Shown piece by piece: positions 2,213 to 41,520 of a stretch of 64,000 bases of DNA (its first letter is position 1; each line of letters opens with the position of its first letter). The DNA is taken from contig DATAVK010000062.1 in NCBI GenBank assembly GCA_036267755.1, positions 887 to 64,886 on the forward strand. Reading direction: 5' to 3'. Both the position numbers and the translations under genes were made by a program. Below the pieces are notes generated by a model. It was not told the DNA's origin and ran no database searches. It saw only the letters and a list, made by a program, of their open reading frames with translations. This stretch comes from Mycobacteriales bacterium (lineage in GTDB: Bacteria; Actinomycetota; Actinomycetes; JAFAQI01).

Positions 2213-3292
2213 TCAGATGCCTCCCACGAACCGGCCCGGCGACATCCGGTTCGCCGGGTCGAAGCGCTCCTTGAGCCGGCGCATGATCTCCAGGCCGCGC
2301 ACCGGACCCCACACGTCGAGGTCGGGCCCGGCTTCGGCGGGCACCTCGACGACCACGACCTGGCCGTCGTACTGATCGACGGTGTCCCGCAGCGTGTCGA
2401 GCCCGGACAGGTCGGCGCCGTCGTCACCCACCCAGACGACCCCGGAGCCGACGTGGGCCCGGACCCGGGCCGCGGGCAACACGTCGTTGATGGCACTCAG
2501 CGTCTCGCGCAACGCGCCCAACCGGTGGGTCACCTTCAGGCCGATCCCACCGCTCGACCAGGGCCGCTCGCCGAAGCCGGCCGGGATCACGTCGCCCACC
2601 TCGCCATCCACGGCGGCGGCGAGCGCCTCAGCCTGGGCGTCGGCGCCCGCCTCGATCGACTCGACGAGCACGGTGAGCGCCGAACCGTCCCATTCCGCCG
2701 CGGTAGGGACCGCGCCGGTCGGGCCAAGTCGCCGGGCGGCGTCGGCGGGATCGTCCGGGTGGGCGGTCACGACCCGCATCGCCCGCGGCAGCGGGTGCAG
2801 CCGGAAGGTGCACTGCGCGATCACGCCCAGGGTGCCGAAGGAGCCGGTGAACAGCTTGCCGAGGTCGTAGCCCGCGACGTTCTTCACGACCTTGCCACCG
2901 GAGTGGGCCACCGTGCCATCGGCGAGGACGACGGTCACACCGATCAGCAGGTCGCGAGGCGTGCCGTAGCGCAGTCGGCGCGGGCCGCTCACCGCGGTAG
3001 CGACCACGCCGCCCACCGTGGCGTCCGACTCCGGCGGGTCGAGGGCAAGCCATTGCCCCGCGTCGGCCACCTGCTCCTGCAGCGACGCGAGCGGGACCCC
3101 CGCCTCGGCGGTCACGACCAGGTCGCCCGCTGCGTGCTCGACGATCCGGTCCATCCCGGTGGTCCGGACGACGACGTCCGGCTCGGCCAGCTGTGGCGGG
3201 AGGGCCCACCGGGCTTTGCTGCCCGCGCCTCGCACCGCGACGGTCGGCCCTGTCGGCACCAGCTCGGCGAGAGCCGCCGAGAGCTCCTTCAC
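2213..3292 (-). CDS. glcE: glycolate oxidase FAD-binding subunit
   Basis: FAD-binding PCMH-type sequence (VAVRGAGSKARW, DRIVEHAAGDLVVTAEAGV) located between glcD and glcF. Start set at GTG 3292, the first plausible start after the glcD stop at 3309; the start is uncertain. Confidence 0.8.
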   Translation of the reverse strand: MKELSAALAELVPTGPTVAVRGAGSKARWALPPQLAEPDVVVRTTGMDRIVEHAAGDLVVTAEAGVPLASLQEQVADAGQWLALDPPESDATVGGVVATAVSGPRRLRYGTPRDLLIGVTVVLADGTVAHSGGKVVKNVAGYDLGKLFTGSFGTLGVIAQCTFRLHPLPRAMRVVTAHPDDPADAARRLGPTGAVPTAAEWDGSALTVLVESIEAGADAQAEALAAAVDGEVGDVIPAGFGERPWSSGGIGLKVTHRLGALRETLSAINDVLPAARVRAHVGSGVVWVGDDGADLSGLDTLRDTVDQYDGQVVVVEVPAEAGPDLDVWGPVRGLEIMRRLKERFDPANRMSPGRFVGGI

Positions 3293-3308
3293 CGAGCCGG
3301 GTGCGAGC

Positions 3309-4820
3309 TCAGAAGACGTCGGCAAGGCCGGCCTCCTGAAGCGGATGAACCCCGGTACGCCGGCCAGGGCGTTCGCCGCACAGCCGGGGCGTGGGGAAGA
3401 CCTTGCCCGGGTTGCAGATCCCGTCGGGGTCGAACGCGCACCGGACCAGCTGCATGACGTCGAGGTCGACCTCGCTGAACTGCCGCCCGAGGTAGGCCTT
3501 CTTGTCGAATCCGACGCCGTGCTCACCCGTGATCGACCCGCCGTACTCGAGACACAGCGCGAGGATCTCCTGCGACACCTGTTCGGCTCGCTCGGTCTCG
3601 CCGCGCGAAGCGTCGAAGAGCACGAGCGGATGCAGGTTGCCGTCCCCGGCGTGGAAGACGTTCGCCACCCGGACGCCGGCGTCGGCGGCGACCGCCTCGA
3701 CCGCGCGGAGCACCTCGGGCAACGCCGTACGCGGGATCACGCCGTCCTGGACGATGTAGTCCGGGCTGATCCGCCCGACCGCTGCGAACGCGGACTTGCG
3801 GCCCTTCCAGATCAGGGCGCGTTCGGCGGCATCCGCAGCTACCCGCAGCTCGAACGCCTCGGCCTCGGTGCAGAGCCGCTCGACGTCGGCCAGCTCGGCC
3901 TCGACCTCACCGGCCGGGCCGTCCAGCTCGACGACGAGGACCGCGCCGGCGCCCTCGGGGTAGCCGCAGTTCACCGCGGCCTCGGCCGCCTCGATGGCCA
4001 GTGCGTCCATCATCTCGATCGCGGCCGGCAGCACGCCGGCGGCGATGATGGCGCTGACGGCCGCTCCGGCCGCCTCGATCGACGGGAAGCCGGCGAGCAG
4101 CGTCTGCACCGCCTGCGGCGCCCGCATCAGCCGCACCGTGACTTCGGTGACGATGCCGAGCGTCCCCTCGCTGCCGACCATGGCGCCGAGTACGTCGTAC
4201 CCCACTGGGTCGGGTGCGCGACCGCCAGCCCGGTCGACCGATCCGTCGGGCAGCACGATCTCCAGGCCGGTGACGTGGTGGGCGGTGAAGCCGTACTTCA
4301 GGCAGTGCGCACCGCCGGAGTTCTCCGCGACGTTGCCCCCGATCGAGCAGACCTGCTGGCTCGACGGGTCCGGCGCGTAGTAGTAGCCGTCCGGCGCGGC
4401 GGCGCGAGTGACGTCGAGGTTGATGACGCCGGGCTGGACGACAGCCCGCTCGTCGTCGGCGGCGATGGCGAGGATCTGCTTCATCCGGGAGAGCACGACG
4501 AGGACGCCGTCCGTCACCGGCAAAGCGCCGCCGGAGAGCCCGGTCCCGGACCCCCGGGCGACGAACGGGACGCCGCGCGCTGCACAAGCCGTGACGACAT
4601 GAGCCACCTCCGCGGTGGTCTCAGGCAGCACGACCAGGCCGGGGATGCAGCGGTAGGCCGCAAGCCCGTCGCACTCATACGTCCGCAGCTCGGCGCGGTC
4701 GGTAATGACTGCGCTGGACCCGAGCGCAGTACGGAAATCGGCGGCGAGCGAAGCGAGCTCGCCGCCCTCCCCGCCGTGATCATGACGAAATGGGCCCTTC
4801 GAGCCGGCTGAAGGACTCAT
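3309..4820 (-). CDS. glcD: glycolate oxidase subunit GlcD (FAD-linked oxidase)
   Basis: ORF 3309-4841. The ATG at 4820 (MSPSAGS) is preferred over the TTG at 4841, which overlaps the aceB stop. FAD-oxidase motifs present: FVARGSGTGLSGGALP and GEHGVG. Confidence 0.9.
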   Translation of the reverse strand: MSPSAGSKGPFRHDHGGEGGELASLAADFRTALGSSAVITDRAELRTYECDGLAAYRCIPGLVVLPETTAEVAHVVTACAARGVPFVARGSGTGLSGGALPVTDGVLVVLSRMKQILAIAADDERAVVQPGVINLDVTRAAAPDGYYYAPDPSSQQVCSIGGNVAENSGGAHCLKYGFTAHHVTGLEIVLPDGSVDRAGGRAPDPVGYDVLGAMVGSEGTLGIVTEVTVRLMRAPQAVQTLLAGFPSIEAAGAAVSAIIAAGVLPAAIEMMDALAIEAAEAAVNCGYPEGAGAVLVVELDGPAGEVEAELADVERLCTEAEAFELRVAADAAERALIWKGRKSAFAAVGRISPDYIVQDGVIPRTALPEVLRAVEAVAADAGVRVANVFHAGDGNLHPLVLFDASRGETERAEQVSQEILALCLEYGGSITGEHGVGFDKKAYLGRQFSEVDLDVMQLVRCAFDPDGICNPGKVFPTPRLCGERPGRRTGVHPLQEAGLADVF

Positions 4821-4837
4821 TTCGTCATGATCACCGT

Positions 4838-6439
4838 TCAATCGAGGAGGTCGTACGCCGGCAGAGTCAGGAAGTCGACGAAGTCGTCGGCGAGCGCCAC
4901 CTGCTCGAAGACAGCACGTGCGTCGGTCCAGCGGCCCTTGTCATAGGCCTCCTGGCCCACCTGCTCGCGGATCTCGCGCATCACGTCGTCGGCGACCGAG
5001 CGGACCAGGTCGACGGTGACCGTGTCGCCGGTGTCGTCGAGCTTCACCCCGGCCTGCACCCACTGCCAGACCTGGGACCGGGAGATCTCGGCGGTGGCCG
5101 CGTCCTCCATCAGGTTGTGGATCGCCGCCGCGCCGTTGCCGCGAAGCCAGGACTCGAGGTAGCGGATCCCGACGTCGACGTTGGTCCGCAACCCGGTGCT
5201 GGTCTTCTCCCCCGGCGTCTTGTCCGCGGCGAGCAGGTCGTCGGCGGTGACGTGAACGTCGGGACGCTGCTTGTCGATCTGGTTCGGCCGGTCGCCGAGG
5301 ACCGCGTCGAACTCCTTCATCGCCGTCTCGACCAGGTCCGGGTGGGCGACCCAGGTGCCGTCGAAGCCGGCCTCCGCCTCACGCTCCTTGTCGGCCTTGA
5401 CCTTCTCCAGCGCGACCCGGTTGACCTCGGCGTCCTTGCGGCTCGGGATGAACGCTGCCATCCCGCCCATCGCGAACGCGCCGCGCTTGTGGCAGGTCTG
5501 GACCAGCAGCTCGGTATAGGCGCGCATGAACGGCACCGTCATGGTCACGCTGTTGCGGTCCGGAAGCAGGTACTCCTCGCCGCGGTCACGGAAGGTCTTG
5601 ATCATCGAGAACATGTAGTCCCAGCGGCCGGCGTTCAGACCGTAGGAGTGGTCCCGCAGCTCGTAAAGGATCTCGTCCATCTCGAACGCCGCCGGAATCG
5701 TCTCGATCAGCACGGTGGCGCGGATCGTCCCGGTCGGGATGCCCAGCGACTGCTGCGCGTGGACGAAGACGTCGTTCCACAGCCGCGCCTCGCGGTGCGA
5801 CTCCATCTTGGGCAGGTAGAAGTACGGCCGGGTGCCCTTGTCGAGCAGCCGCTGCGCGTTATGGAAGAAGAACATCGCGAAGTCGAACAGGCCGCCGCTC
5901 ATCGGCTCGCCGTCGACCAACACGTGCTTCTCCGGCAGGTGCCAACCGCGCGGTCGCGGCATCAGCGCGGCCACGGTCTCGCCCAGGCGGTACTCCTTGC
6001 CCTCGGGAGTCGTGAAGTCGATCCGCCGCTCGATCGCATCGGTGAGGTTGATCTGACCCTGCACCTTGTTGTGCCAGGTCGGCGTGGAGGCGTCCTCGAA
6101 GTCGGCCATGAACACCTTGGCGCCGGAGTTCAGCGCGTTGACCAGCATCTTCTGCTCGGTCGGACCGGTGATCTCGACCCGACGGTCGGCCAGATCGGCG
6201 ACGGGCGCGACCCGCCACTCGGTGTCCTCGCGGATCTCCTTGGTCTCCGCCAGGAAGTCCAGCCGCCCGGTATCGGCCGCCAGCTGCCGACGCTCGCGAC
6301 GGGCCGCCAGCAGCTCGGTACGCCGAGGCCCGAACTGACGGTGCAGGTCCGCGACGAATGCCAGGGCTTCGGTGGTCAGGACCTCGTCGAACCGTCCCTC
6401 GACGGCCCCGGTCACCTGCGGTGCGTCACTGCCCGACAT
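4838..6439 (-). CDS. aceB: malate synthase A
   Basis: ORF 4838-6478 trimmed to ATG 6439 ([11 protein letters not shown]), giving 533 aa. Characteristic stretches: [35 protein letters not shown] and [11 protein letters not shown]. Confidence 0.9.
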
Positions 6440-19372: not shown

Positions 19373-20563
19373 GTGAGCACTGCACGTTCGGCGTCCGTTC
19401 ACGCCACCAAGGGTGACACGGACACCAAGTCCGGCGGCACCACGACAGATCACCCGACGGCGTCGATGTCCGTCGTGGATCCGGACGTTGAGCCGCCGAC
19501 CGGCGCGCCCCCGGCCACCGGCAGTGGTGGCCCAGTCGTCGACAGCACGACGTTGCCCTCCGCCGCGGAGGAGCCCGCCGAAAGCGAGCTCGCCGAGGAG
19601 GAGGACGAGGCCGACATCGTCCCCGAGGAAGACACCTCCGGACCGTCGACCGACCTGGTCCGGGCGTACCTCAAGGAGATCGGCCGCGTCGCGCTGCTCA
19701 ACGCGGAGCAGGAGGTCTCGCTGGCGAAGCGGATCGAGGCCGGGCTGTTCGCGGCCGAGCGGCTGCGCCAGTGCGATGTCGGCGAGGCCAAGCTCACCAA
19801 GACGATCCGCAAGGACTACATCTGGCTCACCGCGGACGGTCAGCGCGCGAAGGACCACCTGCTCGAGGCCAACCTGCGTCTGGTGGTATCCGTCGCCAAG
19901 CGCTACACGGGTCGGGGCATGGCGTTCCTCGACCTGATCCAGGAAGGCAACCTCGGCCTGATCCGCGCGGTCGAGAAGTTCGATTACACCAAGGGCTACA
20001 AGTTCTCGACGTACGCCACCTGGTGGATCCGGCAGGCGATCACCCGGGCCATGGCCGACCAGGCCCGCACCATCCGGATCCCGGTGCACATGGTCGAGCA
20101 GATCAACAAACTCACCCGGGTCCAGCGCCAGATGCTGCAGGACCTGGGACGCGAGCCGACCGCAGAGGAGCTCGCCAAGGAGCTCGACATGACCCCCGAC
20201 AAGGTCGTCGAGATCCAGGGCTACGCGCGGGAGCCGGTGTCGCTCGAGCAGAACGTCGGTGACGAGGGCGACAGCCAGCTCGGTGACTTCATCGAGGACG
20301 CCGACGCTCCGATCGCCGCCGAGGTGGTGTCGTTCGGGCTGCTGCAGCGCGAGCTCGATAGTGTGCTCAAGACCCTGCCGGAGCGCGAAGCCGCGGTCGT
20401 GGCGCTGCGGTTCGGTCTCACCGACGGTCAGCCGCGCACGCTCGACGAGATCGGCAAGGAGTTCGGGCTGACCCGCGAGCGGATCCGCCAGATCGAGGCC
20501 AAGACGCTGTCGAAGCTGCGTCACCCGAGCCGGTCCCAGAAACTGCGCGACTACCTCGAGTAG
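19373..20563 (+). CDS. sigA: principal RNA polymerase sigma factor (HrdB/SigA-type)
   Basis: 396 aa from GTG 19373, preceded by GGGAGAG. Acidic N-terminus, then [50 protein letters not shown], and the C-terminus [17 protein letters not shown], which is nearly identical to the HrdB/SigA termini as I recall them. Confidence 0.9.
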
Positions 20564-22213: not shown

Positions 22214-22972
22214 ATGCCGCTGAGTGCCGACATGGAGCGAGTTCACCGGATCAGAGAGCTCGTCGAGCAGCTCATCAACGACCCGAGGCAGCTGGGACCG
22301 AACTACGAGCCGATCGTCCGGCTGGCCGACCGGAAGGTGGTGGGCGTCAAAGCCACCGGCCGCGGCGCGCCCGGCACCGAGCTGGCCGACACGCTCAGCC
22401 TGCTCGACGGCGCCCGCTCGCTCGGGCTCGTCGAGCGCCTGGACTGGGCGTTTCGGGCAATGAGCTTCGACGACCTGCACGGCCGGGACGATCTCGAGCT
22501 GCACCTGACCCCCGAGCCGGAAACGTTCGGCACCGCCTGCCCGCCGCGGTTCGCGGCCTCGGTGTCGCGCGGCCGCCGTGAGCTGACGGTCGCCGCCGAG
22601 CTGCACGCGGACTCCTTCGGACCCGGTGTGACGCTCAACCAGGGCCTGTCGGAGATCCGGGAGTGGGGCTGGCGGGTCGTCCTCGCCGATGTCGCCGACG
22701 ACCCCGCTGCCGTCGACGGGGCCGCCGCGGTCGGCCCGGACATCGTCCAGATCGACCTCAGGCTGCCTCGGCGGTCGCCGGGTGCGCTTCCCCTCGGATC
22801 GCGACGGCTGCTGTCCATGGCGGCAGACACCGGAGCCCAGGTGATGGCCCTCGGTGTCGACACCGAGGCCGCTCGCGCCGTGGCCCTCGATCTGGGATGC
22901 GTTCTGGCCCGCGGAGCGTTGTTCGGACGGCCCGGACCACTGCCTCAGGCGGGAATCACCCGCTCGGCCTGA
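22214..22972 (+). CDS. stand-alone degenerate EAL-domain protein
   Basis: 252 aa. The EAL-fold skeleton is recognisable ([41 protein letters not shown]), but the EAL motif itself reads KAT and several metal-binding positions appear substituted. Confidence 0.6.
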
Positions 22973-23162
22973 CCCGCGGGACGCGCGGGCACCCCCCTGC
23001 CGTGACAACGAGCGCGGCGTAAGGCATCATGGTGGGTCGCGCCTCAGGAACACATTGGGCGCTGTGCACGTTGCACCGTCTGGCAGGTCATCCCCTCCAG
23101 GGTCGGACCGCCACGACGCACTCAGCACGATATGCCAGCCGACCACGACTAGCCAAGGATGT

Positions 23163-24383
23163 ATGTCCCCCATGAGCACCGCCACCATCGCCCGCGCTGA
23201 CTCCGAGCAGACGTTGCCTGCGCCGGTCGAGGAGCTTCTCGACCAGGCCTCCGCAACGAGCGCCCTGACGTTCGCGCAGGTCCGCAAGGCGCTCGACGAG
23301 GCCAATATCGGCCCGGTCGAGGCCAAGCGGGTCATCGCCGACATCCGCCGGCGCGGGGTGACCATCGGGGCTGACTCCGGCTCGACCGCACCTGGTGCGG
23401 CCGCCGGCGCGACCGCCACGGACGACGACGAGGCGGCGGACGACACCTGGGACCACGAAGTCCCCACCACGGACCTGGTCCGGGTGTACCTCACCGACAT
23501 CGGCCGCGTGGCGCTGCTCACCGCGGAGATGGAGGTCGACCTGGCCCGCCGGATCGAGGCCGGGCTGTATGCCGCGGAGAAGATCCGCCGCTCCGAGGCC
23601 AAGGAGATCAAGAAGCTGACCCCCGCGGTACGCCGTGACCTGGGTCTGATCTCCGCTGACGGTGCGCGCGCCCGTAACCACCTTCTCGAGGCCAACCTGC
23701 GGCTCGTGGTGTCGCTCGCGAAGCGTTACCAGGGCAAGGGCCTGACGCTGCTCGACCTGATCCAGGAGGGCAACATCGGCCTGGTCCGGGCAGTCGAGAA
23801 GTTCGACTACACCAAGGGCTACAAGTTCTCGACGTACGCCACCTGGTGGATCCGTCAGGCGCTGCAGCGCGCCATCGCCGACCAGGGCCGCACCATCCGG
23901 GTGCCCGTCCACATGGTCGAGCAGATCAACAAGGCGCTGCGGGTCAAGCGTGACCTCGCCACCGAGTACGGCCGCGAGCCCACCTTCGGCGAGATCGGTG
24001 CGGTGCTCGAAATGACCGCCGAGCGCGTCGAGGAGATCCTCGGCTACGGCCGCGAGACGCTGTCGCTCGAGACCCCCGTGGGTGACGACGGCACCGCGAC
24101 GTTCGGCGAGTTCATCGAGGACATGGACGCGCCGGTCGCTGCCGACGTGGTCGACTTCGGGTTGCTGCAGGATCGCCTGCGCGACGTCCTGGGCACGCTG
24201 CCCGAGCGTTCGGCGGTCGTGATGCGGATGCGCTTCGGTCTGGATGACGGTCGCCCGCGCACGCTCGACGAGGTCGGTCGCGCACTCGGTCTCACCCGGG
24301 AGCGGATCCGTCAGATCGAGCGGGACACGCTGCGGGAGCTGCGTCGCAGCGACGAAGCCGCAGCGCTCAAAGCCTGGCTGTAA
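23163..24383 (+). CDS. second principal-like (group 1/2) sigma-70 factor
   Basis: ORF 22854-24383 trimmed to ATG 23163 (ATG 23172 is also possible) after AAGGA. Regions 2-4 are highly similar to the sigA copy ([29 protein letters not shown]). The N-terminus [34 protein letters not shown] looks like region 1.1. Confidence 0.9.
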
Positions 24384-35666: not shown

Positions 35667-36797
35667 TTATTTGGTCTTGGGCTTGTACATCGACGCAACC
35701 TGACCACCCGGCTGGCGGTTGGCCGGGCGCTTCGGCGGCATTGGCTCCGCGGGGAACCGACGAGGCCCAGACCACAAGCCGGGTACGGCGTCGTGCCGGT
35801 AGGCCAGCGCGTAGGCGACCGCTTCGTAGTTGACCCGCCACCCACGAAAGTGCGGCCACGCTTCTTCGGCGCTGCGCTCGGTCTCGAACCCGACGTCGAG
35901 CAGCCGCTGGACGCCGGCTTGGAACTCTTCGTAGGTCAGCTGCAGGTCGCCGTCCGGGTCGGGGTCGGTCTCCACCACGATCCCCACCGCGCTGCCCATC
36001 TGCTGCAACGCGACGAAACCCATGCGCAGGCACAACCGGGGCTCCAGCCGGTCTCGGCTCGGGCTGAGTGACAGCAGGAGAGCGGCGGAGTCCATCACGG
36101 CCAACAGTCCGACCAGCCATGAGGTGTACGGCTGTGGCGACCGGAAGCGCATCAGCACGGGGTAGTTGGAGTGGCTCTCGGCGAGGTCCGCCGACCAGCG
36201 TTCCCACGCGGAGTAGAACGCGGGCAGGTCGTCCCGGTCGCCGGCGATGCCGTATTTGGTCCGGGCCAACAGCTCCGGCCCCCATGGTGGCGCGCCCGCA
36301 CGCGACCCGAGCAGCGTGACTTCGGTCTCCCGCCGGTTGAACGCGGAGTACAGCGTCGGCAGGTAGCCGATCTGTGCCGCGACGACGGTGAGCCCGAAGG
36401 CGGCCGCGGCGACGTCGAGCGCTGTGGTCTGGTTGCCCACCGGCGCGACGAATCCCAACGTGAACATCGACGAGCCGGCTTCCCGGAACGCGACGCCGAT
36501 GTTGTGGGTAGCCGGCCAGATCAGCAGCGCGAATCCGATCAGGTACGACGCCAGCCACACCGCCAGCTGGACCACCAGGAAGCCGGCCGCCTGCGCGGCG
36601 AGGATGTTGTCACGGTCGGGGTAGGCCTTTACCCGCATCGTGGCGATCCGGAAGCCCATGTCGACGATCCGGTCGACGGTCCGGCCGATCGGGCCGAGCC
36701 GGGCTCTGGGGATGACCAGCTGGCGCAGCACGCTCGACGACGTCGCGACGATCAGAGAGAGACCAACCAGCACGCCGAAGATCCGCACCACGATCAC
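35667..36797 (-). CDS. ion-channel-like integral membrane protein with large cytoplasmic C-terminal domain
   Basis: 376 aa. Hydrophobic helices flank a pore-loop-like AGSSMFTLGFVAPVG segment. The call is tentative and rests only on its resemblance to a K-channel pore helix and filter. Confidence 0.4.
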   Translation of the reverse strand: MIVVRIFGVLVGLSLIVATSSSVLRQLVIPRARLGPIGRTVDRIVDMGFRIATMRVKAYPDRDNILAAQAAGFLVVQLAVWLASYLIGFALLIWPATHNIGVAFREAGSSMFTLGFVAPVGNQTTALDVAAAAFGLTVVAAQIGYLPTLYSAFNRRETEVTLLGSRAGAPPWGPELLARTKYGIAGDRDDLPAFYSAWERWSADLAESHSNYPVLMRFRSPQPYTSWLVGLLAVMDSAALLLSLSPSRDRLEPRLCLRMGFVALQQMGSAVGIVVETDPDPDGDLQLTYEEFQAGVQRLLDVGFETERSAEEAWPHFRGWRVNYEAVAYALAYRHDAVPGLWSGPRRFPAEPMPPKRPANRQPGGQVASMYKPKTK

Positions 36798-36829: not shown

Positions 36830-38344
36830 GTGCTGCTGCTGGAGGTCGTCACCGTGTCGCGCGCCGTGTCGTCGACTACCCGGCGGCTCGCGAAGGTCGA
36901 GCTCATCGCCGCGGCGTTGCGGGACGCCGGGGCCGACGAGGTCGCCGTCGTGGTGCCGTGGCTCTCCGGCGAGCTGCGGCAACGACGTACCGGGATCGGG
37001 TGGGCGTCGCTCCGTGACCTGCCCGCGCCAGCAGCCGGGTCGACGCTGACCGTTGCGGCGGTCGACCGGCTGCTCGAGCGCGCGGCCAGTGCGGCCGGAG
37101 CCGGGTCGGCCGGTGAACGGCAGCGGATCGTCGCCGAGCTGTTCGGCGCCGCCACCGTCGAGGAGCAGGGCTTCCTGCGGGCACTGGTGTCCGGTGAGCT
37201 GCGGCAAGGGGCGCTCGAGGGAGTCATGGTCGACGCGGTGGCGCGGGCGGCCGGCGTGCCGCTTCCCGCGGTACGGCGGGCCGTCATGCTGCGCGGCGCC
37301 GTTGCCCCGGTCGCCGCTGCTGCCCTCACGGGTGGCGAGGCGGCCCTGGCCGAGTTCCGGCTGCAGGTCGGGCGGCCGGTGCAGCCCATGCTGGCGTCCA
37401 CTGCGGCGTCCGTGCCGGCCGCTCTGGAAGCGCTCGGCGGTGTTCCCGTCGCCGTCGACTGGAAGCTGGACGGCATCCGCGTGCAGGTGCACCGCGACGG
37501 CGACGATGTCGCGGTCTTCACCCGGTCGCTCGACGACATCACCCGCCGGGTGCCCGAGCTGGTCGAGGCCGCGCGCCGGCTCCCCGTGACGACGGCGGTG
37601 CTCGACGGCGAGGCGATCGCGTTGCGGGACGACGGTCGGCCGCGGCCGTTTCAGGAGACCGGTTCCCGGACCGCTACCAGATCAACCGGCTCGCCGGTTC
37701 CGTTGTCCTGGTTCATTTTCGACGCCCTGCATCTCGACGGCGAGGACATCCTCGACCTGCCACTCGCCGAGCGCTACGAGCGGCTCATGTCCGTCGTACC
37801 GGAGGAGCTGTTGGTGCCGAGGGTCATCACCGCATCCGTCGATGCGGCATCCGGCGTGCTCGCCGATACGCTGGCGCGAGGCCATGAGGGCGTGGTCGTG
37901 AAGTCGTTGGAGGCGGCCTACGACGCCGGCCGCCGGGGCGCTGGTTGGCTGAAGGTCAAGCCGGTGCACACGCTCGATCTCGTCGTGCTAGCCGCAGAGT
38001 GGGGCAGCGGCCGCCGGCGGGGCTGGCTGTCCAACCTGCACCTCGGCGCCCGCGATCCTGAGACCGGCGGCTTCGTCATGCTCGGCAAGACCTTCAAGGG
38101 GATGACCGACGAGTTGCTGCGCTGGCAGACCGAGCAGCTGCAACAGATCGAGGTATCGCGTAACGACTGGCAGGTCTTCGTCGAGCCACGGCTGGTCGTC
38201 GAGGTGGCGATCGACGGTGTGCAGGCGTCGACGAGGTACCCGGGCGGGGTGGCGCTGCGGTTCGCGCGGATCGTGCGTTACCGCGACGACAAGTCGGCAG
38301 CCGAGGCGGACACGCTCGAGACGGTGCGCAGCTACCTGCCCTGA
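36830..38344 (+). CDS. ATP-dependent DNA ligase (mycobacterial LigB-type)
   Basis: 504 aa. Adenylation motif VDWKLDGIRVQVH (KxDG), EGVVVKS and WLKVKP motifs, and an N-terminal DNA-binding domain (RLAKVELIAAALRD). Confidence 0.9.
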   Translation: MLLLEVVTVSRAVSSTTRRLAKVELIAAALRDAGADEVAVVVPWLSGELRQRRTGIGWASLRDLPAPAAGSTLTVAAVDRLLERAASAAGAGSAGERQRIVAELFGAATVEEQGFLRALVSGELRQGALEGVMVDAVARAAGVPLPAVRRAVMLRGAVAPVAAAALTGGEAALAEFRLQVGRPVQPMLASTAASVPAALEALGGVPVAVDWKLDGIRVQVHRDGDDVAVFTRSLDDITRRVPELVEAARRLPVTTAVLDGEAIALRDDGRPRPFQETGSRTATRSTGSPVPLSWFIFDALHLDGEDILDLPLAERYERLMSVVPEELLVPRVITASVDAASGVLADTLARGHEGVVVKSLEAAYDAGRRGAGWLKVKPVHTLDLVVLAAEWGSGRRRGWLSNLHLGARDPETGGFVMLGKTFKGMTDELLRWQTEQLQQIEVSRNDWQVFVEPRLVVEVAIDGVQASTRYPGGVALRFARIVRYRDDKSAAEADTLETVRSYLP

Positions 38345-38408
38345 CCCCCCGTCACCCGCCTGTGGATGACGCCAGCACGGGAGCCTCCAGCCGAGCCAGA
38401 CTGCCGCC

Positions 38409-38687
38409 ATGGAGCTGACCGTCTCCCCGGACGACCTACACGCGGCCGCTGTCGCGGTCGACGGGTGCGCCCATCGCCTCGAGTCGGCCCGCGCCGACTT
38501 CGTCTCGGTGTCGGTCGGCGTGATTCCCGATCTCGGTCCCCACGCCGCTGCTACGGCGGAGGGCGCCTCACAGGCGTCGGCCCAGGCGACCGAGGTGGTG
38601 GCCGACGACATCCGACATCTCGCGGCGGCGTTGCGGGTGCTCGCCCAGGTCTACGAACGGCTTGACGCGACCGCCGTACCGCGATGA
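38409..38687 (+). CDS. EspC/DUF2580-like small helical protein, putative type VII secretion partner/targeting factor
   Basis: 92 aa. N-terminus MELTVSPDDLHAAA is like the LTVxPxxL start of EspC-type proteins. C-terminal LAQVYERLDATAVPR contains YxxxD. Its stop overlaps the next start (ATGA at 38684-38687). Confidence 0.6.
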   Translation: MELTVSPDDLHAAAVAVDGCAHRLESARADFVSVSVGVIPDLGPHAAATAEGASQASAQATEVVADDIRHLAAALRVLAQVYERLDATAVPR

Positions 38688-40099
38688 GCGTCGCCCCTCC
38701 TCTCGTCGGCGCGCCGGTGGCACCCGCTCACTTCACGATCCCGAAGATCGCAGGCGATGCGGCAGCCGCCCGACGACTCGCCGCGGGGTACGCCGATCTT
38801 GCCGACTCGGTCGACGCGGCGAGTGCTCAGGTCGGCGCGATCATGGCCGCGTTGACGGCAACGTGGACCGGAGCCGGAAGCGCCGGGTCGATGGCACCGG
38901 TCGAGAAGGTTCGCCACGATTCGGCCGCGCTGTCCCGTGCGTTGCGGGCCGCCAGCGACGACATGTCCCGGTACGCCGCGTCCTTGGCGAAGGCCCATGA
39001 CCATCACGGGTTCTCGTTGCACAAGCTGGTCGCGATCGGTGCGGTCGTGGTCGTGTCCGCGGTCGCGATCACGGTGACCGTCGGCGCCGCCGCCGTCGTG
39101 GAAGCGGGCGCAGCGACGGCTGCCGTCGCCGGTGCGACCGAGGCGGCGGGGGACGCGGTCACGGCCGACCTCGCCGTCGGTGAGGGGCTCGCGGAGGCGA
39201 TGGGCAGCGTCTCGTGGCTGCGACCACTGGCGGCCTTCGTCGTCCCGCATCTGTTGCAGGTCGAGTGGTCAGCCGGGTCCGTCGCTGGCTACGACGAAGC
39301 CACGGCCGGCAGGCTGGACTGGCGCGCGATCGGTGTGGCGAGCGGACTGAGCTTCACCGGCTCGGCGGCGGCTGACGGTGTTGGAGCGCGGGTCGCCACG
39401 ACCGACTGGTACACCGGTGCGTCGCCCGGTGTGCAACATGCCGCCGACGGTCTGGCGCAGGGAACCCTGTGGGCCGGGATCGCCGGGCTCGACGACCGGA
39501 TTGTCGAGGGTCGGGTCGACAGCATCGACATGATCGAGGCGATGCTGCTCACCAGCAGCGGCGTCACCGCCCACGACCTACTGCAGGAACACGGCCTGGT
39601 CTTCCGGCCGAAGACCGACTATCACCGACTTGCGTTGATCGCGGCACTGCGCCAGCCCGGGCGGATCCTCGATCCCGAGATCGCCCGCGAGATGGCGCTG
39701 CTTCGGCAGCCGCTCGACGAGGTGGTCCGCGGTGACGTCGACCTTGCACTGCACGAGGGTCCCGGCCACACGATGAGCCGGCACGTCGGCCTAACGACCC
39801 GGCAGCTGATGACACGGATCCGGCGGGAACGGCTCCCCCGGGCATCGACGTACTGGGATGAGCAGTTAGCTCAGCGAGCCGTCGGTCAGGCGCTTAGAGA
39901 GAACAGCGCAATGATCAGAAAGTGGTTGGCCAGCAACGATCTCCACCACCTTCGGCTTGATTACCTGAGCAACGATGACGTGGGATACACCATGACCAGG
40001 CGAGGGCGCATCAAGCTGACCAGGAGGGTTGTCGTCATCCTCAAGCAGGTCGACGGCGATGTTGTGCTGGTCACGAGCTTCCCGGAGCCGAGCCGATGA
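38684..40099 (+). CDS. putative polymorphic toxin: WXG-type N-terminal domain, hydrophobic segment, unknown central domain, RNase-A-like C-terminal toxin domain
   Basis: 471 aa. WXG in LTATWTGAGSAGS within a helical head. Hydrophobic LVAIGAVVVVSAVAITVTVGAAAVV. C-terminus HEGPGHTMSRHVGLTTRQLMTRI...VVVILKQVDGDVVLVTSFPEP resembles, from memory, the GHTxxRHVG signature of bacterial RNase A-like CdiA-CT domains. G+C drops in the last ~260 nt. Confidence 0.65.
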   Translation: MSVAPPLVGAPVAPAHFTIPKIAGDAAAARRLAAGYADLADSVDAASAQVGAIMAALTATWTGAGSAGSMAPVEKVRHDSAALSRALRAASDDMSRYAASLAKAHDHHGFSLHKLVAIGAVVVVSAVAITVTVGAAAVVEAGAATAAVAGATEAAGDAVTADLAVGEGLAEAMGSVSWLRPLAAFVVPHLLQVEWSAGSVAGYDEATAGRLDWRAIGVASGLSFTGSAAADGVGARVATTDWYTGASPGVQHAADGLAQGTLWAGIAGLDDRIVEGRVDSIDMIEAMLLTSSGVTAHDLLQEHGLVFRPKTDYHRLALIAALRQPGRILDPEIAREMALLRQPLDEVVRGDVDLALHEGPGHTMSRHVGLTTRQLMTRIRRERLPRASTYWDEQLAQRAVGQALRENSAMIRKWLASNDLHHLRLDYLSNDDVGYTMTRRGRIKLTRRVVVILKQVDGDVVLVTSFPEPSR

Positions 40100-40410
40100 C
40101 GTATCCAGTTGAGCTGTGGCCGGTCCTCGCGGCGGCCTTCTCAGGCATGAACGACCCACCCGGCCGACTCCGAGGTCGGGAGGCCTTCACTCACGTGATC
40201 GGCCTCGACTGGAATGCCGGAGGCCGCGCCACCGCCCTCGTTGAGCTGCGCGATTTCTTGGCAAAAGGCGCTGACGAGGAACGCTGCCGATGGCTGATGG
40301 ACGACATGGCGAGCATGTACGACCCGCTCGTGGACTTCCCGACGCACCGCGCCTGCGTCCTCTGGGTCAGAGATCAACTAGAAGCAGGTGCCCGCAGCAG
40401 TACGATCTGA
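40096..40410 (+). CDS. putative cognate immunity protein
   Basis: 104 aa. The ATG overlaps the toxin stop (ATGA at 40096-40099). No signal peptide and no family recognised. The call rests on position and coupling only. Confidence 0.5.
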   Translation: MTYPVELWPVLAAAFSGMNDPPGRLRGREAFTHVIGLDWNAGGRATALVELRDFLAKGADEERCRWLMDDMASMYDPLVDFPTHRACVLWVRDQLEAGARSSTI

Positions 40411-40484
40411 TCTCGCGATTTTGCGAGCGCCGGATGCCCGGACTCTAGCCCGGTTATCCGGCGATGATCTTTGGCCCAGGGTCG

Positions 40485-40547
40485 GCCGATGCCGCGATGG
40501 CCGTTTAAGGCGGCTCTAACGTCGCTAAACGGCCATCGCACATCGGC
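40485..40547. terminator. long imperfect hairpin with 14-bp perfect core arms, between convergent operons
   Basis: GCCGATG-CC-GCGATGGCCGTTTA (40485-40507) pairs with TAAACGGCCATCGC-A-CATCGGC (40526-40547), with an 18-nt loop. Two shorter hairpins lie upstream at 40412-40427 and 40428-40463. Confidence 0.45.
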
Positions 40548-40614
40548 AGCGCACTTCTCGTTGCAGTGAAGCCGGTTCTACGCCATCAACGTTGCACTCA
40601 ACGCGATCAGCGCG

Positions 40615-41520
40615 TTACTTCGAGAGAAGTTCGAACAGTTGGCCCAGCTCATCGCCGGACTGGGTCGGAACGATGTAGCCCTCTTGGTTCTCGATCTGAT
40701 CGATGTTGTCGAGGACATCCTCGGCGGTCGCGATCGTGTCCTTGCCGCCGTACCAACCGGGAGCGAGCCCGACGAATACGCGCGCGTAACGGCCGCCGGC
40801 GGCCGAGAACGTCTCGTGGGTAAAGGTGCATGCCTCAGACGCGAGGAACGTGACCAGTGGCGTCACGGTCTCCGGCTTGAGCAGTTTGGCGAAGTCACCG
40901 AGCAGCTCCTCCGTCATCCGGGTCCCGGCGACCGGACACACCACGTTCGACAGGATGCCGGCCTTGGCACCTTCGATGGCGAGCACGTTGGACAGACCGA
41001 CGAGGCCCATCTTCGCCGCGCCGTAGTTGGCCTGGCCGAAGTTGCCGAAGACACCGGAGTTCGACGAGGTGAAGACGAAGCGGCCGTAGCCGTTCTCCTT
41101 CATCACCTTGAACGCCGGCTGCGACACGTAGAACGCACCCCTGAGGTGTACGTCGATAACCAGGTCGAGGTCTTCCCAGCTCATCTTGGCGAACGACTTG
41201 TCACGCAGGATGCCGGCGTTGTTGATGACGACGTCGACCTTGCCGTAGGTGTCGACCGCCGTCTTGACGATGCTCTCGCCGCCTTCCGGCGAGGAGACCG
41301 AGTCGTAGTTGGGCGTTGCCTCGCCGCCTGCGGCCTTGATCTCGTCCACGACCTTCTGCGCCGCCGCGTCGTCGCCGCCTTCACCGTTCACGGACCCACC
41401 GAGGTCGTTCACGACGACCTGCGCACCGCGGCGCGCCAGCTCGAGGGCGTAGGTACGACCCAGCCCGCCGCCTGCACCGGTGACGATGGCGACCCGGCCG
41501 TCGAAGGTGATCTCAGACAC
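40615..41520 (-). CDS. SDR-family oxidoreductase (MFE-2/HSD17B4-type 3-hydroxyacyl-CoA dehydrogenase-like)
   Basis: 301 aa. VAIVTGAGGGLGRTYALELARRGAQVVVNDLG and NYGAAKMG (YxxxK). Confidence 0.85.
   Translation of the reverse strand: MSEITFDGRVAIVTGAGGGLGRTYALELARRGAQVVVNDLGGSVNGEGGDDAAAQKVVDEIKAAGGEATPNYDSVSSPEGGESIVKTAVDTYGKVDVVINNAGILRDKSFAKMSWEDLDLVIDVHLRGAFYVSQPAFKVMKENGYGRFVFTSSNSGVFGNFGQANYGAAKMGLVGLSNVLAIEGAKAGILSNVVCPVAGTRMTEELLGDFAKLLKPETVTPLVTFLASEACTFTHETFSAAGGRYARVFVGLAPGWYGGKDTIATAEDVLDNIDQIENQEGYIVPTQSGDELGQLFELLSK

Follow-up and report, generated by a model that had tools for sequence, protein, structure and literature searches.

The question raised by this locus is whether three overlapping genes encode an exported toxin together with its targeting partner and immunity protein, or a nuclease that serves the producing cell in some other way. 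The cassette is probably a chromosomal polymorphic toxin-immunity system of the actinobacterial ESX/type VII kind. Within the window, that is, the whole 64-kb stretch of DNA that was analysed, the genes are placed as follows.

38409–38687, + strand: ORF1, 92 aa; NCBI HEX3907518.1, 'type VII secretion target'
38684–40099, + strand: ORF2, 471 aa; named 'RNase A-like domain-containing protein' by NCBI
40096–40410, + strand: ORF3, 104 aa; NCBI HEX3907520.1, 'hypothetical protein'

The original prediction, made from the DNA letters, had described three + strand ORFs chained by ATGA start/stop overlaps. Its coordinates, its quoted strings and the overlaps themselves (ORF1/ORF2 at 38684–38687, ORF2/ORF3 at 40096–40099) were all reproduced. 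The ORFs are real genes and not chance occurrences since their codons have a GC3 of 0.75–0.85 versus a GC2 of about 0.5, homologues exist for all three, dN/dS values of 0.04–0.29 against two relatives indicate purifying selection on all three, and the overlapping layout is seen again in independent metagenomic contigs. A drop in G+C content over the ORF2 tip and ORF3, also remarked upon originally, was measured as 0.59–0.65 versus about 0.70–0.74. The rate dN is highest in the same two parts (tip 0.086, ORF3 0.126), with 0.017–0.066 in the carrier regions of ORF2 and 0.073 in ORF1. The host is an uncultured soil actinobacterium.

ORF1 is matched in a Pfam scan by PF10824, T7SS_ESX_EspC (EspC/DUF2580), with an E-value of 1e-6 and 29.5 bits (cut-off 23.5). 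The carboxy terminus reads ...VYERLDATAVPR and contains the motif below.

38652–38666, + strand: Y-x-x-x-D of ORF1 (Y82-E-R-L-D86), resembling a type VII secretion signal, as read from the sequence

The tyrosine and the aspartate are kept in all seven aligned orthologues (7/7), and the more distant partner protein of a barnase cassette has L-x-x-x-D in place of Y-x-x-x-D. Orthologues of ORF1 lie upstream of every syntenic ORF2 and are also found in the barnase sister cassette; the dN/dS of ORF1 is 0.17–0.28. From its sequence, ORF1 may be described as a helical protein of the EspC family and a putative type VII targeting partner, the role first proposed for it from the carboxy terminal motif.

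The amino terminal part of ORF2 was modeled as a helical hairpin with the W-x-G motif at its turn.

38753–39004, + strand: WXG100-like hairpin head, ORF2 residues 24–107; helices 26–60 and 70–107; AF2 pLDDT 70–85
38864–38872, + strand: W61-x-G63 of the head (W61-T-G63), at the modelled turn between the helices

A Foldseek search with the AF2 model of the head returned EsxA/EsxB structures (TM 0.80–0.87, probability 1.0), so that the head recognised earlier by its W-x-G can be assigned a WXG100 fold. Neither W61 nor G63 varies among 41 sequences. In the sequence HMMs of Pfam and NCBIfam the head fell below the cut-off (TIGR03930, E = 1.5e-4; PF06013, E = 0.09); close ORF2 homologues exceed the cut-off of either Pfam WXG100 (PF06013) or WXG100_2 (PF25547), and the latter family already covers both the head and the membrane helix that follows it. 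The LXG family was absent among Pfam hits at E-values up to 1. In the proposed mechanism, the EspC-like hairpin of ORF1 with its Y-x-x-x-D would pair with the WXG100-like amino terminal hairpin of ORF2, and the resulting four-helix bundle would display a two-part type VII export signal. A type VII machine, with its genes in another part of the genome, would then take over the pair.

At the opposite end of ORF2 is the putative toxin.

39749–40099, + strand: RNase A-like domain, ORF2 residues 356–471 and stop codon; PF18431; AF2 pLDDT >90
39782–39784, + strand: H367, catalytic equivalent by comparison with CdiA-CT(Ykris)
39815–39817, + strand: R378, likewise
40073–40075, + strand: T464, likewise
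40079–40081, + strand: F466, likewise

The string GHTxxRHVG had been named as the signature of bacterial RNase A-like CdiA-CT domains, and this was borne out. The sequence HEGPGHTMSRHVG occupies ORF2 residues 357–369, and PF18431 (RNAse_A_bac) matches the tip with an E-value of 1.2e-24 and 87.7 bits (cut-off 27). The CdiA-CT/CdiI pair of Yersinia kristensenii (PDB 5E3E, PF18431/PF18593) carries a tip of the same family both by sequence (5e3e_B, E = 2e-10) and by fold, the AF2 model superimposing on 5e3e_B with a TM score of 0.86 and an rmsd of 2.4 Å over 113 columns at 26% identity. Shared features extend to the catalytic His, Arg and Thr, to a lack of disulfides and to an immunity gene directly downstream. 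The two differ in their delivery, as CdiA-CT(Ykris) ends a CdiA filament of >3,000 residues in a Gram-negative type V system and the ORF2 tip is mounted on a 350-residue WXG100-headed carrier.

They also differ at one catalytic position. From the accessible text of Batot et al. 2017 (PMC5435912), the active site of CdiA-CT(Ykris) comprises His175, Arg186, Thr276 and Tyr278, and a Y278A substitution abolishes activity. H367, R378 and T464 of ORF2, the equivalents of the first three, are invariant across the tip family, and F466 stands where CdiA-CT(Ykris) has Tyr278. This phenylalanine was missed in the original prediction. The column toggles repeatedly between Y and F within the family, and a Y-to-F change is not among the substitutions described for CdiA-CT(Ykris) in the accessible text of PMC5435912. 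The F-type tips (those of the window and of the related loci L001 and L022) retain their immunity genes, and therefore a loss of toxicity is not implied. The ORF2 tip with Phe466 is predicted to be an RNase.

ORF3 gave no hit in Pfam (at E-values up to 1) or in NCBIfam, and it is called hypothetical by annotation pipelines because the Pfam model misses the family. Its AF2 model is all-helical (pLDDT 82.8, pTM 0.78) and aligns with CdiI(Ykris), 5e3e_A, with TM scores of 0.72/0.75, an rmsd of 2.6 Å over 97 columns, a probability of 1.0 and a Foldseek E-value of 0.013. The CdiI chains 5e3e_A/C were the sole meaningful PDB match (TM 0.71–0.77), other matches listed having a TMq of 0.38 or less. 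ORF3 is like CdiI(Ykris) in its all-helical immunity fold (TM 0.72–0.75); sequence similarity to CdiI_2 is undetectable, and hhalign compared the ORF3 family with the CdiI_2-type proteins of distant homologues at a probability of 10.8%. Only 22 clusters make up the ORF3 family among 5.8 billion proteins. In eight of eight contexts, a gene of this family lies directly 3' of an ORF2-type toxin gene; for one of these, L024, the contig stops within the upstream gene, which has no Pfam call. The dN/dS of ORF3 is 0.16–0.26.

From the model, ORF3 is a putative immunity protein with the CdiI(Ykris) fold, in line with its earlier description as immunity-like, and would represent a new small family of immunity sequences with that fold. 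ORF3 is predicted to neutralise the tip. Being translationally coupled to ORF2 on a shared mRNA, ORF3 would keep the nuclease blocked inside the producer up to the moment of export, after which the carboxy terminal RNase A-like nuclease would cut the RNA of a recipient cell. That ORF2 leaves the cell by type VII secretion and acts between bacteria is likewise a prediction.

Further context for a toxin comes from the relatives of the ORF2 carrier. An exhaustive profile search with ORF2 residues 1–352 found 181 carrier relatives, the tips of which include RNase A-like, Ribonuclease (PF00545), EndoU (PF14436), Colicin D (PF11429) and Ntox17 (PF15524) domains and several unassigned ones. The span of the carrier common to the tip types covers profile positions 1 to about 300. 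The immunity gene tracks the tip, with RNase A-like tips followed by ORF3-type or CdiI_2 genes and a Ribonuclease tip by Barstar. Distant RNase A-tipped homologues have a Pfam CdiI_2 gene next downstream, and at the sister locus L013 genes with overlapping ends encode a partner of 92 aa, a toxin of the WXG100_2/Ribonuclease type and Barstar. Since one carrier is found with several nuclease tips, and with a sister that has a barnase-type tip and barstar, the family is a true polymorphic toxin system. The architecture proposed originally holds in each element that was open to computation, with at least five nuclease tips on one carrier.

CpnT has a membrane-associated amino terminal part and a carboxy terminal toxin, with an immunity gene downstream. 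If the cassette is compared with CpnT/TNT of Mycobacterium tuberculosis, the same layout would be compatible with a type VII effector directed against eukaryotes, for instance amoebae, fungi or plant roots. A eukaryotic target is highly improbable, as every tip identified on the carrier is of a type already listed for polymorphic toxin systems of bacteria and the window carries no signal of host association. Both the EsxE/EsxF-CpnT-IFT system of M. tuberculosis and the EspA-EspC system resemble the cassette in having a small Esx/EspC-type partner beside a larger substrate, and ORF1 shares the EspC family with the second. CpnT itself differs in its carrier sequence, which is unrelated to ORF2, in an NAD glycohydrolase tip that is aimed at host cells, and in gene order.

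Between the head and the tip, ORF2 may be considered in terms of four segments.

39020–39100, + strand: hydrophobic helix of ORF2 (HKLVAIGAVVVVSAVAITVTVGAAAVV), residues 113–139; single membrane helix
39101–39208, + strand: acidic Ala-rich stretch, ORF2 residues 140–175, C-terminal to the membrane helix
39209–39583, + strand: middle region, ORF2 residues 176–300; all-helical; AF2 pLDDT 54–80
39584–39748, + strand: helical linker, ORF2 residues 301–355; AF2 pLDDT 77–83; dN/dS 0.04–0.18

The hydrophobic stretch quoted originally lies at residues 115–139. The helix has a Kyte-Doolittle peak of 2.68 at residues 115–133 and a net charge of −6 on its C-flank. It is the best-conserved part of the family, with an identity of 0.91 among close relatives and 0.72 among far relatives, and has a dN/dS of 0.06–0.10. 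A signature of HHxWSLxK followed by ...TVGAA is common to carriers with every tip type. No Pfam family was matched by the middle region. A semi-conserved G-x-V-D at residues 278–282 lies close to where the carrier ends, profile coverage by representative proteins falls from 37–69 at positions 176–300 to only 4–7 at positions 301–350, and the linker at residues 301–355 is restricted to relatives bearing an RNase A-like tip. Judged from these alignments, the carrier with its conserved membrane helix has a recombination boundary near residue 300.

The membrane helix and helical middle would then act as a conserved carrier, common to relatives with other nuclease tips. Most likely, they provide a surface hold on the producer or help the tip to cross the target membrane. 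They may in this way constitute a delivery module of actinobacterial type VII nuclease toxins, whether by surface anchoring or by passage of the tip across the target membrane. Type VII substrates do not usually contain a membrane helix, and its presence could mean insertion into a membrane rather than secretion.

The cassette lies in a housekeeping region of the chromosome. Synteny and vertical inheritance of the locus extend across relatives down to 42% identity. The 20 larger ORFs scanned within the 64-kb window are housekeeping genes, other neighbours of the cassette match housekeeping genes of the syntenic loci, and no ESX/type VII core genes are present in the window, as had been stated. 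Among the aligned full-length sequences, syntenic orthologues included, 41 of 41 have the same tip and diverge evenly along ORF2. A six-frame HMM screen found no extra modules, and the cassette locus has neither the strain-level replacement of tips nor the orphan tip or immunity modules that competition loci usually show. Neither marks of mobile elements nor flanking repeats were found around the cassette, and 50,697 phage records and 72,556 plasmids contained nothing that matched the carrier at BLAST level. The original prediction had counted it as evidence against itself if ORF2 were a housekeeping membrane protein conserved uniformly across relatives. This is in part what was found, ORF2 being syntenic, vertically inherited and evenly diverged at the cassette locus.

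A whole sister clade has lost ORF3 and has no immunity gene within 4–10 kb, yet its toxin is constrained. The tip in this clade has 26 invariant columns, with the catalytic residues among them. A constrained toxin without immunity is hard to reconcile with a self-toxic cytoplasmic RNase, and the clade amounts to a natural experiment in which the immunity gene is gone and the toxin is still under constraint. The carrier module may keep the toxin harmless in a producer that has no antidote, or the toxin may have taken on a non-antagonistic role. It is rather doubtful that both parts of this picture hold together, namely that the helix and middle region form a self-contained delivery module and that the toxin lacking ORF3 is kept harmless by the module or was re-purposed. 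If either the delivery module or this account of the ORF3-less clade is true, it would bear on the way in which type VII toxins get into their target cells. The vertical chromosomal locus, the Phe in place of a catalytic Tyr, the clade without ORF3 and the conserved membrane helix were all unexpected.

These same observations could describe a domesticated, surface-anchored housekeeping RNase. The helix at residues 115–133 would insert ORF2 into the producer membrane, head inside and tip outside, extracellular RNA would be degraded, for example in scavenging nucleotides or phosphate, and ORF3 would be a leftover safeguard. A vertical locus in a housekeeping region, even divergence along ORF2, a membrane helix that is its most conserved part and retention of the invariant tip columns and catalytic residues where ORF3 is missing would all follow, and the acidic C-flank fits the head-in, tip-out topology. 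Batot et al. (PMC5435912) argue likewise for RNase A-like proteins of Bacillus cereus that are conserved and anchored by lipid. Such an enzyme is nevertheless unlikely here. A single carrier combined with five or more nuclease tips, and with immunity genes to match, is a hallmark of conflict systems, an EspC-like export partner is conserved beside the toxin, and in the clade of the window ORF3 is under purifying selection and evolves, together with the tip, faster than the other parts.

The lack of type VII machinery nearby (in the 64-kb window), the translational coupling of a small antidote gene to a nuclease gene and the membrane helix within the toxin would also be expected of an intracellular toxin-antitoxin or abortive-infection module. 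ORF2, freed from ORF3 upon stress or phage attack, would shut down the cell's own RNA in or at the producer membrane, and the WXG-like head would be a structural relic. An invariant W-x-G argues instead for a functional head, and the order of toxin then immunity gene with an EspC-like Y-x-x-x-D partner is typical of exported polymorphic toxins. A search with 5,027 defence-system models gave a single weak hit for the cassette, between the coiled-coil of ORF1 and ZorA (E = 0.0035). As clades without ORF3 would furthermore be inviable, a module of this type is very unlikely.

Read as an exported polymorphic toxin with its immunity protein, the cassette has several known counterparts. WXG-headed type VII polymorphic toxins of Actinobacteria were predicted by Zhang et al. 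2012 (PMC3482391), and Batot et al. 2017 reported, in Figure 9, WXG100 effectors that end in an RNase A-like tip (PMC5435912). As far as the accessible text of both papers goes, these toxins are like the cassette in having a WXG100 head, a variable carboxy terminal toxin and a downstream immunity gene; the same text amounts to catalogues with no experimental member, and does not describe the membrane helix and middle region, the EspC-type partner or an immunity family of the ORF3 type.

Mycobacterial prophages, namely those of Mycobacterium abscessus and M. chelonae, also carry such three-gene layouts, known as PT-Imm cassettes (Dedrick et al. 2021, PMC8092301; Cushman et al. 2021, PMC8191103). 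They follow the same three-gene logic in the same bacterial order, with a small ESAT-6-like WXG100 protein, a WXG-headed variable-tip toxin of ~50 kDa and an immunity protein. Export of PT-Imm toxins by the host ESX is a prediction only, as it is for the present cassette. The PT-Imm cassettes are prophage-borne and lie beside attachment sites, in contrast to the housekeeping chromosomal region occupied here, and their ESAT-6-like partner is unlike the EspC-type partner with its Y-x-x-x-D. The LXG toxins of Firmicutes (type VIIb; Lap/DUF3130 factors) are alike in that their helical amino terminus is joined by small helical partners from upstream genes, and in having a variable carboxy terminal toxin and a downstream immunity gene. 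Unlike them, the cassette has no LXG-domain match in Pfam, one partner instead of two or three, a type VIIa context and a membrane helix in the carrier.

In view of these precedents, the suggestion that the combination of parts might be undescribed could not be upheld. WXG100/RNase A-like effectors appear in PMC5435912, the layout is given in PMC8092301 and PMC8191103, and NCBI already has names for ORF1 and ORF2. The cassette is a fresh example of a type of weapon that has been predicted from genomes since 2012, the kind itself being already known, and the general picture of such toxin systems is unchanged by it. In the literature searched, experimental competition by type VII polymorphic toxins has come from Firmicutes only, and the Actinobacteria are represented by genome predictions. 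The cassette offers a compact three-gene example with fold-level support for each part, and a cultured relative, Acidothermaceae bacterium B102 (complete genome AP028633.1), is usable for experiments.

The cassette consists of three forward-strand genes chained by ATGA overlaps of stop and start codons, at exactly the coordinates proposed in the original prediction, and all of the motifs quoted there were found in the ORF sequences:

38409-38687, + strand: ORF1, 92 aa, NCBI HEX3907518.1, "type VII secretion target"
38684-40099, + strand: ORF2, 471 aa, NCBI HEX3907519.1, "RNase A-like domain-containing protein"
40096-40410, + strand: ORF3, 104 aa, NCBI HEX3907520.1, "hypothetical protein"

The exact proteins are present in NCBI, on an 82-kb contig from a MAG labelled "Mycobacteriales bacterium". 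The codon-position G+C of the three ORFs is typical for real genes in a 70% G+C genome, and each has homologues and is under purifying selection (dN/dS 0.04-0.29 against two relatives). The reading with the best support is that the cassette encodes a polymorphic RNase toxin of the type VII (ESX-type) kind, together with a dedicated targeting partner and immunity protein.

The assignment of ORF1 as an EspC-type partner, and of ORF2 as a protein with a WXG-type head and an RNase A-like C-terminus, agrees with the family and structure comparisons. ORF1 scores over the curated cut-off of Pfam T7SS_ESX_EspC, and Y82-x-x-x-D86 at its C-terminus is kept in 7/7 aligned orthologues. The ORF2 structure model, built from a 41-sequence alignment, presents five regions. 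In the model, the head consists of two helices (26-60 and 70-107) paired as a hairpin, and W61-x-G63 lies at their turn; this hairpin aligns with EsxA/EsxB crystal structures at TM 0.80-0.87, and W61 and G63 are invariant. Residues 113-139 form one strongly hydrophobic helix (Kyte-Doolittle maximum 2.68) with an acidic flank after it. The middle region is predicted to be all-helical and belongs to no known family, and residues 301-355 are modeled as a helical linker. The C-terminal tip is an α+β fold with a pLDDT above 90 that is identified as PF18431 RNAse_A_bac (E 1.2e-24) and resembles the toxin CdiA-CT of Yersinia kristensenii (PDB: 5e3e_B, TM 0.86, 2.4 Å, 26% identity). In that toxin, His175, Arg186, Thr276 and Tyr278 were shown to be important (PMC5435912). 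The equivalents of the first three in ORF2 (H367, R378, T464) are invariant. The Tyr278 equivalent is Phe466 in the ORF2 of the window, and this column has undergone several Tyr/Phe switches across the ORF2 family.

Pfam and NCBIfam scans of ORF3 returned no match. The ORF3 model (pLDDT = 82.8, pTM = 0.78) was searched against 350,542 PDB chains and the sole real match was CdiI of Y. kristensenii (TM 0.72/0.75, 2.6 Å), which is the cognate immunity protein of the toxin that the ORF2 tip resembles; among the matches listed, all others had a TMq of 0.38 or less. A profile-profile comparison of ORF3 with CdiI_2-type proteins by hhalign was not significant (probability 11%) and, since the Pfam scan was also empty, the link between them is one of fold and gene position only. 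From the fold match and the non-significant profile comparison, ORF3 is a sequence-divergent family with a CdiI fold. A profile search of 5.8 billion proteins identified 22 clusters of this family and no members away from toxin genes. In 8/8 contexts examined, one of which (locus L024) has its upstream gene cut by the contig end, the ORF3-family gene lies directly 3' of an ORF2-type toxin gene. Both fold and position support the immunity-like role first proposed for ORF3. The conserved C-terminal half of ORF3 (residues 48-85, RCRWLMDDMASMYDPLVDF) gave weak matches to S100/EF-hand sequences in the PDB (profile search, best single-domain E 0.037). Since these are missing from the fold search, the likeness is unsupported and probably due to chance.

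WXG-headed type VII polymorphic toxins of Actinobacteria were catalogued in 2012 (PMC3482391), and WXG100 effectors with RNase A-like tips were reported in 2017 (PMC5435912). The cassette also shares its three-gene layout with prophages of M. abscessus and M. chelonae that encode a small WXG100 protein, a WXG-headed toxin of ~50 kDa and an immunity gene (PMC8092301, PMC8191103). Pfam WXG100_2 (PF25547) already covers the ORF2 head and helix. Because the toxins, the tips, the layout and WXG100_2 have been described, the cassette belongs to an already known kind of system. While the observation and interpretation of the original prediction were sustained, its suggestion that the combination may be undescribed was not. 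The new details are the CdiI-fold ORF3 family, a defined carrier bounded near residue 300, a stable chromosomal and syntenic setting, Tyr/Phe variation at a catalytic position, and a sister clade without the immunity gene. The cassette may be regarded as a solid, well-resolved example of its kind.

To explore the carrier, 1.84 billion representative proteins were searched exhaustively with a profile of ORF2 residues 1-352 only, which yielded 181 relatives. Many resemble ORF2 through the head, helix and middle region, as far as roughly position 300, beyond which they have other tips: barnase-type Ribonuclease (PF00545), EndoU, colicin D, Ntox17, and several that are unassigned. At the sister locus L013, genes with overlapping ends encode a 92-aa ORF1-like partner, a Ribonuclease-tip toxin and Barstar. 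More distant RNase A-tip homologues, in Frankiales MAGs and the cultured Acidothermaceae bacterium B102, are without ORF1 and are followed by a Pfam CdiI_2 gene. The B102 locus (L022; AP028633.1, complete genome) contains:

2705-3778: ligase gene, 357 aa, directly upstream of the toxin
3899-5619: toxin (460 aa) and CdiI_2-like gene (111 aa)

The B102 toxin has a WXG head, a membrane helix and an RNase A-like tip with Phe at the Tyr278 position; the CdiI_2-like gene comes after it and no ORF1-type partner is found upstream. As a cultured relative, B102 is a possible experimental entry point. At the family level, this is a polymorphic toxin system in which toxin and immunity gene are swapped as matching pairs.

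At the locus itself, about 45 full-length homologues of ORF2 were identified, nearly all of them metagenomic; the RNase A-like tip is present in every one. The locus is flanked by a conserved 376-aa membrane protein and by an SDR/TspO/CN-hydrolase/aminotransferase block, and its position is unchanged in relatives with as little as 42% identity, chromosome-scale contigs (1.9 and 3.6 Mb) among them. Identity to the ORF2 of the window is uniform over its length (tip 0.70 in close and 0.41 in far relatives vs 0.63 and 0.38 for the head), with the membrane helix as the most conserved part. Given this synteny and even divergence, the toxin at this locus is vertically inherited and not swapped between strains.

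ORF3 is present in the clade of the window and in one basal lineage (L016, 43% identity), whereas a large sister clade (23 sequences) lacks it; 7 contigs of that clade, with 5 distinct proteins, were examined and no third gene lay within 4-10 kb. Six-frame HMM screens (±4-10 kb) of orthologue loci without a third gene identified no hidden ORF3-like or CdiI-like genes. As L016 is placed at the base of the sister clade in a neighbour-joining tree, a single loss of ORF3 is implied. In the sister clade, the RNase tip is under the same constraint as the remainder of the protein (pairwise identity 0.61 vs 0.50 for the head); 26 of its columns are invariant, among them all four catalytic positions, of which position 466 is Tyr. 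By contrast, variability in the clade of the window is greatest in the tip; the highest dN is found in the tip and ORF3. The main rival to a polymorphic toxin is a domesticated surface RNase, for which the synteny of the locus, the even divergence along ORF2 and the clade without ORF3 all speak, and which echoes the argument made by Batot et al. on RNase A-like lipoproteins of Bacillus cereus (PMC5435912). Loci L002-L008 and L017-L019 of the sister clade keep both ORF1 and ORF2, with no immunity-like gene within 4-10 kb.

The G+C content is 0.59-0.65 over 39700-40750 (the tip, ORF3 and a 204-nt convergent spacer before the SDR gene) vs ~0.70-0.74 around it. When the window is compared with locus L010, dS is 0.81 for ORF3 vs about 0.43 for ORF1 and ORF2. 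A GC3 dip over the tip occurs only in loci keeping the immunity gene. The G+C drop suggested a recent replacement of the tip and ORF3; however, the tip has diverged in step with the remainder of the protein and a swap was not demonstrated. Either an exchange of the tip-immunity module at an earlier time or an effect of composition may account for the drop and the ORF3 dS. The cassette bears no mark of mobility: no carrier relatives were found in phage or plasmid collections, the window has no Rfam families or tRNAs that would mark an integration site, and flanking direct or inverted repeats were limited to weak matches, as expected for high-G+C DNA. Defence-system models did not match the cassette. 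Consensus scans for sigma-70 promoters and intrinsic terminators over 38000-40800 found nothing, a result that is uninformative for a high-G+C actinobacterium.

If the cassette is a type VII polymorphic toxin system, ORF1 and the ORF2 head would supply the two-part W-x-G / Y-x-x-x-D export signal, the RNase A-like tip would be the payload, and the translationally coupled ORF3 would guard the producer. The shared carrier is made up of the conserved membrane helix and the middle region. Since all identified carrier tips are nucleases, which must reach a cytoplasm, a carrier function in anchoring at the surface or in crossing a membrane is plausible, though purely inferred. The membrane helix and the sister clade without the immunity gene are two loose ends worth pursuing. 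As first noted from the sequence, no type VII core genes lie within the 64-kb window.

Two genes lie next to the cassette on its upstream side:

35667-36797, - strand: 376-aa multi-pass membrane protein
36830-38344, + strand: ATP-dependent DNA ligase, 504 aa, immediately upstream of the cassette

In the syntenic loci examined, the membrane protein, which has neither a Pfam nor a PADLOC match, is a conserved neighbour of the cassette. Its gene is divergent from ORF1 with almost no spacer in far orthologues, and in the clade of the window the ligase gene sits between the two. The ligase is found in this clade and is absent from far orthologues. A functional link to the cassette was considered and rejected: because the ligases of the window and B102 share only 27% identity and belong to different subfamilies with different domain make-up, and far orthologues have none, their adjacency is probably a coincidence. 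In locus L012 (3.6-Mb ENA contig), many genes are split or fused in a manner that looks like frameshift errors from long-read assembly; the ORF3 call carries the last ORF2 residues, the genes for the ligase, peptidase S49 and EAL protein are all fragmented, and gene calls from this contig are to be used with care. The 20 larger ORFs scanned in the window are housekeeping in nature, including glycolate oxidase subunits, malate synthase, aldehyde dehydrogenase, two sigma-70 factors and TypA/BipA. Two full-length sigma-70 family genes (19373-20563 and 22854-24383, both + strand), each with regions 1.2, 2, 3 and 4, lie less than 4 kb apart.
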